This document shows, piece after piece, positions 28,963 through 35,993 of a DNA stretch of 64,000 bases (the stretch's first letter is position 1; each line of letters begins with the position of its first letter). Source of the DNA: Candidatus Poseidoniaceae archaeon (GTDB taxonomy: Archaea; Thermoplasmatota; Poseidoniia; Poseidoniales; Poseidoniaceae). The position numbers and the translations under genes were made by a program. The notes under the pieces were generated by a model. That model ran no database searches, was not told the origin of the DNA, and was given only the letters and a program-made list of their open reading frames with translations. The DNA is taken from positions 96,001 to 160,000 of the forward strand of contig CBFIJH010000002.1 in assembly GCA_965662895.1 (NCBI GenBank). Reading direction: 5' to 3'.

Positions 28963-30276
28963 TCAATCCAAAATACCTGAAATTCCATTTTCTGGAACAT
29001 GAACGTTATGCCCCTTGGATTCCAGTGCTTCTGCGAGTGGAGGACGGGCCATGTTTGGATCCGAGTGATAGATGACGACATCCTCTGCTTGGCAGTCCTC
29101 AGCGAATTGAACAATTTCTTGATGTCCTGCATGGGTTGAAAAGGAGTATTGGTCGACATCAAGTTCAATGTTTGACAGCTTACCAAAGATGGGTACACGA
29201 CCTTCTTCGAGCAGTCTTCGACCTCCTGTATTTCGAGCTTGGTAGCCTGTAAGTAAAATTGCATTTTTTCTATCATGGCGTAATCGATTAAGGTACCAAA
29301 TCGACGGACCACCTTCCAGCATGCCCGATGTTGAAACAATAACGTCTGCATCGAGAGCCTTTTTACGATCTGATTTACTTGAAACACGGCGACACCATCT
29401 CCAAGCTGATTCAAGAGCTGTTGGATCTCGCAACGTTTCGGGGTGTTCCATTTGCAATTTAGCCACGCGCTTGCCCATACCGTCAACATGAACATCCAAT
29501 TCTGGGAGGTGTTTGTGTAAAAGCATGACAACATCCTGTGTCCGCCCATTTGCAAATGCCGGAATCAGTGCAGTTCCACCACGATCAACAACTTCTACGA
29601 CTCGTTCAATGAATCGCTCGTTCTCTTCCTGTTTTGGTGGATGATCACGACCACCATACGTCCCTTCAACAAAAAGGACGTCTGTCTTAACGGGTTTTGC
29701 ACCCTTTGTAAGTTGTGAATCTCTCGTATCAAAATCCCCAGAGAATAACACAGACTTGCTCGGAGTTTCGACATGAAGCATAGCTGCACCTGGAATGTGG
29801 CCGGCGCCATGAAGTTCGAGTTTCCAATTATCCTGTCTCCAGGATTTGTTGAACTTGTGTGTTTTCCATGCTGACAACGCAAGATCAATATCTCGTTTAT
29901 CCCAAGGAAGAGGATATCTTTCAATTGATGAAACCTTGTGGCAATCATACCACATCATTTCCGAAATCGCTGCAGTTAACTCTGTACCATGAAGTGTCGA
30001 ATTGTGGTTTGATGCAAGCCATGGTACCATCCCAAGGTGATCAATATGGGAATGTGTAATGATTGCATGAGCGACATGTGGCGCTTCGTTAGGATAACGG
30101 GGTGGTTTCGTCGGAGCGATACCATAATCAAGAAGAAGACGATTTGAGGATGGATCTTCGAGCACAATTCCAACATTGCCTACTTCGTTACCACCACCGA
30201 GATAATGATACCGTAGTCCACGTTCTGGAGGGGTTTGTGGGTAGCCAGATGTTCGACCTGGTGCATAGACGACCAT
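28963..30276 (-). CDS. Beta-CASP MBL-fold ribonuclease (aCPSF-type)
   Basis: LGGGNEVG, THSHIDH, AGHIPG, SGD, EGTYG, STHAG. Confidence 0.92.
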   Translation of the reverse strand: MVVYAPGRTSGYPQTPPERGLRYHYLGGGNEVGNVGIVLEDPSSNRLLLDYGIAPTKPPRYPNEAPHVAHAIITHSHIDHLGMVPWLASNHNSTLHGTELTAAISEMMWYDCHKVSSIERYPLPWDKRDIDLALSAWKTHKFNKSWRQDNWKLELHGAGHIPGAAMLHVETPSKSVLFSGDFDTRDSQLTKGAKPVKTDVLFVEGTYGGRDHPPKQEENERFIERVVEVVDRGGTALIPAFANGRTQDVVMLLHKHLPELDVHVDGMGKRVAKLQMEHPETLRDPTALESAWRWCRRVSSKSDRKKALDADVIVSTSGMLEGGPSIWYLNRLRHDRKNAILLTGYQARNTGGRRLLEEGRVPIFGKLSNIELDVDQYSFSTHAGHQEIVQFAEDCQAEDVVIYHSDPNMARPPLAEALESKGHNVHVPENGISGILD

Positions 30277-30317
30277 AACTCAACGAATGAATTGTTATGA
30301 ATGAACTTGTGGGTGAC

Positions 30318-30499
30318 ACCCCTAGGTTTCCAGTGGAATCTGTTTGAGAGTCGAGACAATATATTTTCAGTGAGATTCTACAATAACAATATACACTATA
30401 CGCGAAATAATACGATTGTACTTTGTTGATTTATATCTATTATTTTCTTTGTTGATCTTTTGTCAAGCATCAGAGTAACTCCAGTGGAAATTAAGGGGT
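30318..30499. other. oriC: Candidate archaeal replication origin (two inverted ORB elements around an AT-rich element)
   Basis: Minus strand 30318-30338 TTCCACTGGAAACCTAGGGGT; plus strand 30479-30499 CTCCAGTGGAAATTAAGGGGT; about 140 bp AT-rich spacer in the largest intergenic gap. Confidence 0.8.
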
Positions 30500-30621
30500 A
30501 GGGATATGAATCTTCTTTGTAACAAGTGAAATCGAAAGGTTCTTTCTCTTGGACATAAATCTCTACAAAATTATTTCAAAATCATGGAAGATGAAATATG
30601 ACAGTGTCCACTGGAGCAAAC

Positions 30622-30810
30622 ATGCCACAACCATTCTTTGTTGTTGACGAAGATCTGTGCTATGGTTGTGGTGCGTGTATTGGCTTATGTCCAACAAGTG
30701 CGTTGTCAATGAAAGGTCTTCTTGCTCTTGTAGAACAGTCGAGTTGCACATATTGTGAACTATGCATCCCAAGCTGTCCCGTGGATGCTCTCTTTATTGA
30801 ATCGAGATGA
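30622..30810 (+). CDS. 2[4Fe-4S] ferredoxin
   Basis: CYGCGACIGLCP and CTYCELCIPSCP. Confidence 0.93.
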   Translation: MPQPFFVVDEDLCYGCGACIGLCPTSALSMKGLLALVEQSSCTYCELCIPSCPVDALFIESR

Positions 30811-32275: not shown

Positions 32276-32977
32276 TTAATCTTCATCTTCAAGTAAATCG
32301 AGAACATCAGAAACTGCCGAATCCCAAACCATTTTCTTTGTTTTCTTCTGGTGTAATTCTTCATTTTCAAGGATCTCAAGTATTCCATCATCGACACCGA
32401 CATTTCCTGCTTTAATGTTGGTCCGCGTAACCATTTCAACATCTTCTCCTGCACGATCCGAACGGTCAACTGGTGCAATATCCTTACTTGGAATGGTTCG
32501 TCCTGCGTGATAATGGTCACGATCAAAGTCTTTTTCGCTCCAGGTGTCGGTACCGATTTTTCTTGCCACTTCCGGTTCAGGAGGCTTGTCTTTCCATTGA
32601 TTCTTGTTTGCGATATTTTGGATGATTGATTGTTTTTCGACGCTCTTTTGAAGTTCAAAAATCTCCAAAACATCCTGTCCTGATCGTTCCTTTTCCTTTG
32701 GTGCGTATTGACTTGCTCGATGTTGTTGTTCGTCCAACCATGGGCCGTGAATAGGGTCAGTATCATGGCGATGAGGAGCGACAGACATAGCTAGCAACTC
32801 CTTCGCGAATTGATAGAATGCGTCTTCAGGAGGTGCTTTAGCCATTTCATCGCGAATTCGTTTGTGAGAAGCAATGCATTTCTGGCATCTTGAACTCCCG
32901 ACTTCGTCTGGCTCATCGCACCACAGGCAACATGCCTGGAATCCCATGTCCTTCATTGCTCGCCTAGGCATTGACAT
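32276..32977 (-). CDS. Hypothetical protein with N-terminal Cys cluster
   Basis: CCLWC...RCQKC followed by a charged region. Confidence 0.7.
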   Translation of the reverse strand: MSMPRRAMKDMGFQACCLWCDEPDEVGSSRCQKCIASHKRIRDEMAKAPPEDAFYQFAKELLAMSVAPHRHDTDPIHGPWLDEQQHRASQYAPKEKERSGQDVLEIFELQKSVEKQSIIQNIANKNQWKDKPPEPEVARKIGTDTWSEKDFDRDHYHAGRTIPSKDIAPVDRSDRAGEDVEMVTRTNIKAGNVGVDDGILEILENEELHQKKTKKMVWDSAVSDVLDLLEDED

Positions 32978-33065
32978 GGTGCTCAACGAACCCTAGTTGT
33001 TCAAACACATGAACTCTCGCACATCGCGAGCGAGGATTGAAAGAAGACAACGAATTGAGAAGAGC

Positions 33066-33953: not shown

Positions 33954-35993
33954 TCAAAGACCGTGGATTTCCTTGGACTTATCGTGACTCCAGTGGTAAC
34001 ACAATCGGAGGAGGTTGAGATAGTGTCCCTGGCCGTCTTTGACCATCTTCTCGTGAAGCGGCTCATTGGTCATGAACATGTCACCCCAAACGTTGGCAGA
34101 TGTACCCTTCTTGCCCTTTGGCAGGTCAAAGACTTCGTTTGTTGTTGGTTCCAACAAGTTCTTCCAAACAATTGCTGGATTGACAGCCATCGTTACTTCC
34201 ACGATGATTTCGTCCTCGTTGAGGCCAGTTCCTGTCTGCCAGGATTCTTCTCCCATATCAGCAAGGAATGGGAGACATAGATCGATGATGGAGAGTCCAG
34301 TCATTGGGTCAGCACCGGTCATTTGACCGTAAGCTTCTCGCATTCGTCCACGGTCAGCGCCACGAGCACCCGTGATCATGCGTAGCTTGTCGATAGATGT
34401 TGGAACGAGGAATCGAATGTCCGTGTAGTAGACAAGCGCCTGTTCACTGCTGCCTGCAGGTGCAAAGATGTGTGAGAACGGCTGTGCACCACTGCTTTCA
34501 CCAAGCATGTCCATCGGGAACAATGTCTTGAGTGCGTTCGTTGCAACGGATTGGACAACGCGTCGAATCAATCGCTCTGGAGCGGCTGAAACGTCGTTAA
34601 ACGATTCCATGTATTCATCGAGGTTGAGAATATCGTATCCACGAACAGCGAGGATTGAATGGACGTTTGGACCAAGGATCTTGTCACCCTCAATCATTGC
34701 CTGACTAATCCAGCGAGCACCCTTAGCGAAATCGCTTGCAGTAACGAGATCAGCATATGCCTTGTATCGACGAGCAACACGGTTCATGAAGTCCGCTTGG
34801 TCGAGCTTGGTGAAGACCGTAGCAGCGTAGTTTGACTTCAGTGCGTGGTCGGCTACCTGACTTGCGTTGACACACGTTAAGAGATTTCCTTGGTCGTGAG
34901 GGTAGAGCAACAATCGTCGACGCTTGGCAGCGCCACCAAGTGAGCCAACCTTCGGATCGGTCAAGATGTAGCCGAGACAAGCAGTGACTTCGAACAGACG
35001 AGCGTATTTGTCTTCATCGCTTGCGTTTTTGATCCACTCGTCAAGACCTGGCTCGACACAGTGGAATTCAAGTGGGACCATTTCGGAACCTGCACCGAAC
35101 ATCTGTCGAACAGTCGAAGAGGACATCATACCCATCATGGTGTACAATGACGTTTTTCCAGTGGTGAGGAAGACGTCAGTGATTCCTTCTTCACCGAAGG
35201 AGATACGTCGGTCTGGCAGGTTCACCAAGAGATTGAATGCAGTAGCAGTATCTCGGTTTCCATCAACAGCGGGATGAATCCATGTCGTTGGTTTGGTCAT
35301 GAGGTAACCACTTGCATCCTTTCCAAATCCAGCAGGGGAGTATCGAATCCACCCGAGTCGGTTGTTGAACGCAACACCACGGTGCATCAATGAAGGGTAG
35401 TAGACCTTGTCTTGTGGGTCTGAATCTGGTACAACACCTCGGTGTCCGAGACCCCATAGGATTGGTTCCCACTCAGCAACACCATCTTCATCGCCACCAT
35501 CACCTAGGAATGGATGGCCACTTGAGACGGTTTCACCAGTGAGCATGGAACCACCCAATCGCTCTTCATCGCCTGTTGAACAGAAGAAGAACGTCTGTGT
35601 GGTGACGAGTTGCTTTGGCGTCCACATGTTCGCATTGACGACTGTCTTTTGCTTAAGGAAGTCCGAGAGTGTGCTGATTCGACGTTCAAACTTGAATCGC
35701 TCAGATTCAATCCACGTGGAACCGAAGAAGAGGTTAGTGTTGAGTAACTTTGGACGACCAGGTCCGATGTAACGTGAACGAGGATCTCCCTTTGTGTCAT
35801 CCGTTTCATGAATAGGTTCCCACGGTCCTTGTGTTGGAATGTACTTGAGGAATTCTTCGTGATCAAAAGGCATCTTTTGTGCTTCTTTGACGGCGTCTTC
35901 GACTTTATCCATCAACTGGACATAAGTTTCAGTTGGTGTAATTCGTCCACTTTCTTTGAATTGCTTATGCGATACTGCTCGATGTTCCCACAT
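33954..35993 (-). CDS. Hypothetical 679-aa soluble protein, probably highly expressed
   Basis: Long ORF, GAGGTG SD upstream, C-ending codon bias; no family recognised. Confidence 0.85.
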   Translation of the reverse strand: MWEHRAVSHKQFKESGRITPTETYVQLMDKVEDAVKEAQKMPFDHEEFLKYIPTQGPWEPIHETDDTKGDPRSRYIGPGRPKLLNTNLFFGSTWIESERFKFERRISTLSDFLKQKTVVNANMWTPKQLVTTQTFFFCSTGDEERLGGSMLTGETVSSGHPFLGDGGDEDGVAEWEPILWGLGHRGVVPDSDPQDKVYYPSLMHRGVAFNNRLGWIRYSPAGFGKDASGYLMTKPTTWIHPAVDGNRDTATAFNLLVNLPDRRISFGEEGITDVFLTTGKTSLYTMMGMMSSSTVRQMFGAGSEMVPLEFHCVEPGLDEWIKNASDEDKYARLFEVTACLGYILTDPKVGSLGGAAKRRRLLLYPHDQGNLLTCVNASQVADHALKSNYAATVFTKLDQADFMNRVARRYKAYADLVTASDFAKGARWISQAMIEGDKILGPNVHSILAVRGYDILNLDEYMESFNDVSAAPERLIRRVVQSVATNALKTLFPMDMLGESSGAQPFSHIFAPAGSSEQALVYYTDIRFLVPTSIDKLRMITGARGADRGRMREAYGQMTGADPMTGLSIIDLCLPFLADMGEESWQTGTGLNEDEIIVEVTMAVNPAIVWKNLLEPTTNEVFDLPKGKKGTSANVWGDMFMTNEPLHEKMVKDGQGHYLNLLRLCYHWSHDKSKEIHGL

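Follow-up and report, generated by a model that had tools for sequence, protein, structure and literature searches.

Inverted ORBs remote from orc1-1 mark a probable chromosomal replication origin in a Marine Group II archaeon

Two inverted ORBs at positions 30318–30499 of the DNA analysed here most probably constitute the chromosomal replication origin, of the oriC1 type, of a Marine Group II (MG-II) archaeon, a reading to which we assign a probability of about 85%. Orc1 binding, MCM loading and firing at the pair are what we infer by analogy with the oriC1 origins of Sulfolobus and the haloarchaea. The stretch under study, called the window throughout, is 64 kb long (C2:96001-160000 of genome G000) and belongs to a 1.86-Mb assembly of 26 contigs; the loci closest to it come from Candidatus Poseidoniaceae / Poseidoniales, that is, from Marine Group II. 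A preliminary description of this DNA had proposed a replication origin at the site, and the proposal is now supported by the conservation of the boxes, by the uniqueness of the pair and by a switch of gene orientation in relatives from two families. An origin of the oriC1 type requires at least two inverted ORBs, each consisting of a dyad and a G-string, an AT-rich unwinding element between them, and a cognate Orc1/Cdc6 encoded in the genome, and each of these was found. A directly adjacent initiator gene, which is typical of the type and not strictly defining, is absent from the site.

The left ORB occupies positions 30318–30338 on the minus strand, where it reads TTCCACTGGAAACCTAGGGGT and combines the dyad TTCCACTGGAA with the G-string GGGGT. 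The right ORB lies at 30479–30499 on the plus strand, reads CTCCAGTGGAAATTAAGGGGT and consists of the dyad CTCCAGTGGAAA and, again, the G-string GGGGT. Both of the inverted 21-bp boxes previously described are thus present at their coordinates, and their likeness to the archaeal ORB pattern was borne out by a match to the archaeal and Methanomassiliicoccales consensus published in Table 2 of PMC4153887. The left G-string aims outward, at a beta-CASP gene, and ends 42 bp from the start codon of that gene; the right one also aims outward, with a ferredoxin gene 99 bp off. These two neighbours, which had been named from the letters of the DNA, were identified as such by Pfam. The first encodes a beta-CASP metallo-beta-lactamase ribonuclease of 437 aa on the minus strand (28963–30276; Pfam Beta-Casp, Lactamase_B and RMMBL), a short form lacking KH domains that scores under the NCBIfam aCPSF1 cut-off. 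The second encodes a 2x[4Fe-4S] ferredoxin of 70 aa on the plus strand (30598–30810; Pfam Fer4 families). The promoter region of the beta-CASP gene probably abuts the left ORB, and a conserved TTCAT word is found at about -25 to -29 of this gene, beside the left G-string.

The gap between the two genes (30277–30597) had been called free of ORFs. The divergent arrangement of the neighbours stands, and the only long ORF is a TTG frame of 59 aa, overlapping with the start of the beta-CASP gene. An Rfam scan of 30100–30800 with E values up to 1 returned zero RNA families, which rules out a known non-coding RNA gene in the gap. Elsewhere in the window but near the site, two ORFs on the minus strand (32276-32986, 236 aa, and 33954-35993, 679 aa) had no Pfam match at E <= 0.001.

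Full ORBs are rare in this genome. The pattern TCCANTGGAAA-N2-8-GGGG occurs in four copies in the 1.86 Mb, as compared to 0.25 expected from 20 Markov-1 simulated genomes (mean 0.25, maximum 1). The four are the two boxes of the window, a copy in coding sequence at C3:7191 and one upstream of mcm. The boxes starting at 30318 and 30479 form the only ORB pair in the genome, and the genome G039, a single contig of 1,598,520 bp from another family of the order, likewise has one pair only. The copy at C3:7191 was set aside as a functional ORB, since it encodes a conserved peptide and is probably a coding coincidence. In both G000 (C3:7191-7211) and G039 (519,054-519,074), the ORB-like word lies inside an ORF of about 850 aa, at roughly 5 kb from orc1-1; the two proteins share 26% identity, and the word encodes a conserved S-T-G-basic-x-G peptide. 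The similar distance of this word to orc1-1 in the two genomes is a curious observation.

Conservation of the boxes in related genomes had been set as a check on the proposal, and position, spacing and polarity were found to be kept within the genus, the family and the order. We searched 40 relatives for the beta-CASP protein and scanned the flanks of each hit for boxes; as relatives are non-independent samples, all conservation counts given in this text have to be read accordingly. Within the same genus, 16 of the 19 loci (L006-L024) carry both boxes at <=1 mismatch, with a start-to-start distance of 153 bp (152-153). Two of the remaining three loci end at contig ends, and the third has a single box at threshold. 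For two other families of the order, seven out of eight loci keep the succession of beta-CASP gene, box, spacer, box and ferredoxin gene; four loci have both boxes at <=1 mismatch, the others of the seven being more degenerate, and at L032 the synteny is broken. Orthologues of the beta-CASP gene adjoin the ORB pair throughout the order, with the ferredoxin gene at the same place in the loci of the other families.

The survey was extended by a set of public genomes comprising 80 loci, 77 of which were usable (>=400 bp upstream). Demanding <=2 core mismatches per box together with GGGG, we observed an outward-facing ORB pair between the beta-CASP and ferredoxin genes in 73 of these 77 family-level loci. 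The inner spacing of the boxes in the 73 loci was 135-147 bp, and the G-string proximal to the beta-CASP gene lay 38-73 bp from its start. At the family level, the left ORB has the consensus tTCCANTGGAAAcAaAGGGGTGtG and the right ORB the consensus cTCCANTGGAAAtaAAGGGGT. Information content is near its maximum at TCCA, TGGAAA and GGGGT, and low at the centre base of the dyad, in the 4-nt linker and over most of the spacer. Judged from these alignments, the pattern is as expected of protein-binding boxes and not of a conserved RNA or peptide.

Between the ORBs lies the presumed duplex unwinding element (30340–30478), where the preliminary description had placed an AT-rich core of about 140 bp. 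The spacer measures 139 bp and has a GC content of 28.8% vs 46.8% in the window; equally AT-rich were only 0.023% of the 139-bp windows sampled genome-wide. An alignment of 75 sequences revealed that the spacer diverges freely, with the exception of a conserved central motif. In the window, this motif is located at 30394–30414, about 6 bp off the midpoint between the ORBs, and reads CACTATACGCGAAATAATACG, the family consensus being aCTtNtCGCGAccAtATtC. The word CGCGA is found in 70 of the 75 spacers, at a median offset from the midpoint of 6 bp, and the extended central pattern CT-N3-CGCGA-N2-A-N-AT has a single occurrence in the whole genome, which is at the spacer.

Two further words lie outside the right ORB. 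At a distance of 64-65 bp (30543–30555), there is the position of a mini-ORB-like dyad lacking a G-string, which is degenerate in the window (TTTCTCTTGGACA). Allowing <=2 mismatches, a dyad at offset +64/+65 was detected on one strand in up to 46 of 75 loci, with the consensus tTTCc..T.gAaa. Both this mini-ORB and the CGCGA motif probably serve as accessory sites, and the central motif may be where an accessory factor acts. The second word, TGTCCACTGGAG, is dyad-like with one mismatch and lies 126-127 bp outside the right ORB (30605–30616), within codons 3-6 of the ferredoxin gene. It is kept mainly within the genus, occurring in 13 of 75 family-level loci, and coding constraint could be the cause of its conservation.

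The layout of the site resembles that of well-characterised archaeal origins. Sulfolobus oriC1 is described as an ORB3-DUE-ORB2 arrangement, which depends on Orc1-1 and in which inverted ORBs, each binding one Orc1-1 monomer in a fixed polarity, enclose an AT-rich segment of about 130 bp, and a short essential motif termed ucm, positioned midway between ORB2 and ORB3, is bound by the protein UBP (PMC12141716). The MG-II site likewise has inverted ORBs around 139 bp of AT-rich DNA and a conserved motif about 6 bp off the midpoint. The motifs themselves differ: the MG-II motif contains CGCGA, the ucm oligonucleotide listed by those authors is rich in A and T, and the two sequences are unrelated. 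UBP is described there as restricted to Desulfurococcales and Sulfolobales (PMC12141716). In the haloarchaeal oriC1 of Haloarcula hispanica and Haloferax volcanii, an AT-rich element is bordered by inverted ORBs whose G-strings lie on the outside, and ARS activity is reported to need both boxes and both G-strings (PMC3936714). For the predicted origins of Methanomassiliicoccales, a sister lineage within Thermoplasmatota, the ORB consensus, GTTCCAGTGGAAATGG-AGGGGTA, is nearly identical (PMC4153887, Table 2).

The outward direction of both G-strings, away from the AT-rich core, is as stated in the preliminary description, which had recommended a comparison of this polarity with characterised origins. 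In this comparison, the polarity did not look unusual. All three orc1-linked ORB pairs from other Thermoplasmatota (L271, L278 and L281) have outward G-strings, the left box lying on the minus strand and its partner on the plus strand, and an outward polarity for the Haloarcula hispanica oriC1 is implied by the wording of the mutant descriptions in PMC3936714. The polarity of the window pair therefore appears to be the ordinary one. Extending these known systems to the MG-II site, one Orc1-1 monomer would occupy each ORB in a fixed polarity, its winged helix contacting the dyad and its AAA+ domain the G-string. Bound to ATP and inverted relative to each other, the two monomers would recruit MCM onto the 139-bp AT-rich spacer, from which replication would then run in both directions.

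A genome-wide skew analysis had been suggested as a further check, and it gave a mixed outcome: a switch at the ORB pair was seen in gene orientation in G039 and in both gene orientation and GC skew in the MG-II chromosome G041 (CM001443.1), but neither on the window's own contig nor in some of the skew measures. For G039, ORFs of >=100 aa were called greedily. The cumulative gene orientation reaches its global minimum at 185,987; this position belongs to the same intergenic gap as the pair (186,218-186,391), in a genome with 234 divergent junctions. The curve forms a single V and peaks at 941,666, at a distance of 47% of the circle. When two symmetric replichores were fitted, gene orientation was best served by an axis at 165-180 kb and AT3 skew by one at 225-230 kb. 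The raw GC and AT skews of G039 are weak, with a cumulative GC-skew maximum at 192.6 kb. A raw GC3-skew fit preferred 475 kb or 1,275-1,310 kb, with the ORB site ranking 128 of 320, and the raw AT-skew extremes are away from the site, at 342 and 1,175 kb.

For G041, the analysis covered the initial 800 kb of a record of 2,064 kb. In this segment, the ORB pair at 203,746-203,929 encloses two extremes, the minimum of gene orientation at 203,799 and the maximum of cumulative GC skew at 203,822. With gene strand controlled, GC3 skew and all-site GC skew both had their best step at 205,000 (rank 1 of 152); the AT-skew step was found at about 100 kb, the ORB site ranking 129-142 of 152. In both G039 and G041, the top strand is relatively G-rich to the left of the site and C-rich to the right, in genes of either strand, and genes point away from the site, with minus-strand genes making up 57-65% on the left and plus-strand genes 66-77% on the right. 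Because of this direction of the genes, the site behaves in these two genomes like an origin whose leading strand is C-rich. An inverted GC-skew polarity of this kind was described for haloarchaea by Norais et al. (PMC1868953), to which the MG-II sites are similar in this respect.

On the window's own contig C2, the GC-skew contrast (left minus right) at the site formed a weak local peak of 418, as compared to a 95th percentile of 774, and was not significant; the gene-orientation minimum of the contig is at C2:156 kb and not at the ORB site. The missing switch finds a partial explanation in an inversion of about 44 kb relative to G041 (C2 about 130-174 kb), which adjoins the site just to its right. 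As the contig itself gives no significant skew, the origin call for the window depends on orthology with the relatives. In coordinates of the window, the inverted block spans about 34000-64000 and runs on to C2:174 kb (vs CM001443.1). Comparing C2 with G039, we counted 68 orthologues within 150 kb of the pair, of which 35 changed side. Distances to the site are conserved (Spearman 0.83), and a side switch is accompanied by a strand flip in 51 of the 68. This is the pattern of inversions symmetric about the site (X-pattern), with the axis resolved to about 20 kb.

The relation of the pair to the initiator gene is atypical. Two orc1/cdc6 genes of the genome exceed the TIGR02928 cut-off, and the window, on C2, contains neither of them, in agreement with the earlier remark that no cdc6 was recognised in the 64 kb. 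One, orc1-1, is located at C3:12506-13600 (TIGR02928, 414 bits; NF001625, 471 bits, below the cut-off of 501); the second, faster-evolving copy is at C11:42869-43936 (TIGR02928, 239 bits). Orc1-1 is intact, and its best solved relatives are the ORB-bound 2v1u_A (A. pernix ORC1, 1.7e-91) and 2qby_A (S. solfataricus Orc1-1). From the positions of the contig ends, a distance of at least about 98 kb separates the ORB pair of G000 from orc1-1. The proposal of an origin without an adjacent orc1/cdc6 holds here and in four relatives, where the distance between pair and orc1-1 amounts to 337 kb (G039), about 309 kb (G037), about 437 kb across the ends of the record (G041) and about 467 kb on the same contig (G042). 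In these four genomes, which represent two families, the separation is roughly a fifth of the genome.

Linkage between orc1/cdc6 and the origin is described as typical in reviews (PMC5333045). Sulfolobus oriC1 adjoins orc1-1, and in Methanomassiliicoccales the ORBs adjoin orc1/cdc6.1; in Poseidoniales, by contrast, none of nine orc1-1 loci (G000 and eight others) has an ORB within 1.5 kb. In the order Poseidoniales, the initiator gene would be separated from its origin. Sulfolobus oriC3, an unlinked case, uses WhiP rather than a canonical ORB and Orc1-1, whereas the MG-II site represents a fully canonical oriC1-type element lying apart from orc1-1 throughout an entire order. Origins away from orc1/cdc6 are described as existing in Sulfolobus and maybe in Halobacterium NRC-1, and as forming a minority that is small and difficult to predict (PMC3528665).

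The remaining full ORB of G000 is solitary and located at C6:108674-108692, 69 bp from the MCM start and pointing at mcm. A lone ORB at 69-87 bp upstream of mcm is found in 28 of 29 Poseidoniales loci (L299-L327), and also in G039 and G041, showing that promoter-proximal ORBs occur in this order. In Pyrococcus, a single full ORB is reported to bind Cdc6 with high affinity, single mini-ORBs not being stably bound in vivo (PMC1904270). Because a single full ORB suffices for binding in that organism, the mcm ORB is by analogy a plausible real target of Orc1. The recurrence of this ORB suggests that expression of the helicase gene, too, is under the control of the initiator. Orc1-1 may have a second role, in controlling the promoters adjacent to the pair and mcm.

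A more far-reaching scheme, which we put forward only tentatively, involves the position of the origin about a fifth of the chromosome from orc1-1 and the conserved lone ORB 69-87 bp upstream of mcm. In Poseidoniales, Orc1-1 would act entirely in trans as both initiator and transcription factor, serving a distant origin, and the mcm ORB would set the helicase supply. Initiation would moreover require a factor acting at CGCGA, which would be lineage-specific and a functional analogue, in a distant phylum, of the Sulfolobus ucm/UBP system.

A regulatory function could also be the sole function of the boxes. They would then be mere operators, through which Orc1-1 (or Orc1-2) regulates the divergent beta-CASP and ferredoxin promoters, and replication would start elsewhere. 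The geometry at the beta-CASP gene would suit an operator, with the left G-string ending 42 bp from the ATG and next to the conserved TTCAT word; the single ORB before mcm shows a like geometry in 28 of 29 loci, and an Orc1-type transcription regulator is known in Sulfolobus (PMC9738581). This geometry is compatible with a second, regulatory role of the left ORB. As the complete explanation, however, we consider regulation unlikely: it leaves unexplained why an inverted pair should enclose a conserved AT-rich spacer of 135-147 bp with a central motif, and it does not account for the orientation and GC-skew switches in two genomes or for the symmetric rearrangements. In addition, neither G000 nor G039 has another ORB pair able to serve as origin, and orc1-1 is without a nearby ORB in nine of nine Poseidoniales loci.

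That the pair is a secondary or dormant origin, the main one lying elsewhere and lacking canonical ORBs, seems quite improbable to us. Multi-origin archaea and dormant origins are documented (PMC4595724), the genome encodes a second, faster-evolving orc1/cdc6 on C11, and the GC3 and AT skews of G039 fit the site poorly. Yet the single V of gene orientation in G039, lowest at the pair and highest at 47% of the circle from it, fits one dominant origin, and published work describes the second core Orc1/Cdc6 as never linked to an origin (PMC5333045). Least credible is a terminus or other chromosome landmark. This explanation takes the usual rule of a G-rich leading strand to apply, and by that bacterial rule the cumulative GC skew, which is maximal and not minimal at the site, would indicate a terminus. 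Genes on both sides point away from the site, however, which is the pattern of an origin, ORBs are initiator sites, and haloarchaeal origins are described as showing a like inverted skew polarity (PMC1868953). We consider all of these alternatives weaker than a replication origin, as none accounts jointly for three features: the paired architecture, the uniqueness of the pair, and a switch of gene orientation in relatives from two families.

The ocean plankton is rich in Marine Group II archaea, which are uncultured, and in the literature searched (subscription journals and DoriC lay outside its scope) we found no published replication origin of MG-II or Poseidoniales. The element is thus of a canonical kind, in a lineage for which that literature yielded no origin. 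A fixed and recognisable origin would provide an anchor for orienting and closing metagenome-assembled genomes, as well as for peak-to-trough coverage estimates of growth at sea. Origin finders that scan only beside orc1/cdc6 would miss Poseidoniales, which provide a clear natural example of separation between a canonical ORB origin and its initiator gene. The central motif, in turn, bears on the existence of accessory origin factors outside Sulfolobales, a question raised in PMC12141716.

Elsewhere in the phylum, the linkage of ORBs and orc1-1 is variable. In other Thermoplasmatota families, at least one ORB is found within 1.5 kb of orc1-1 in 8 of 21 loci, usually 60-400 bp upstream and pointing at orc1. 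For one family of the phylum (f5; L270, L272, L277, L279 and L282), in turn, orc1-1 is without an ORB within 1.5 kb in all five loci. In the genome G069, three ORBs cluster on C42, a contig other than that of orc1. A genome of the same class and another order (L288, G064:C70:30135-30245) has an outward ORB pair 73 bp apart, with orc1 on another contig; this pair sits between convergent genes, one encoding a phosphopantothenate synthetase-family protein and the other a class II tRNA synthetase. Given the G064 pair and the f5 loci without an ORB beside orc1, unlinking is not confined to Poseidoniales, and origins may have parted from their initiator genes on more than one occasion within Thermoplasmatota.
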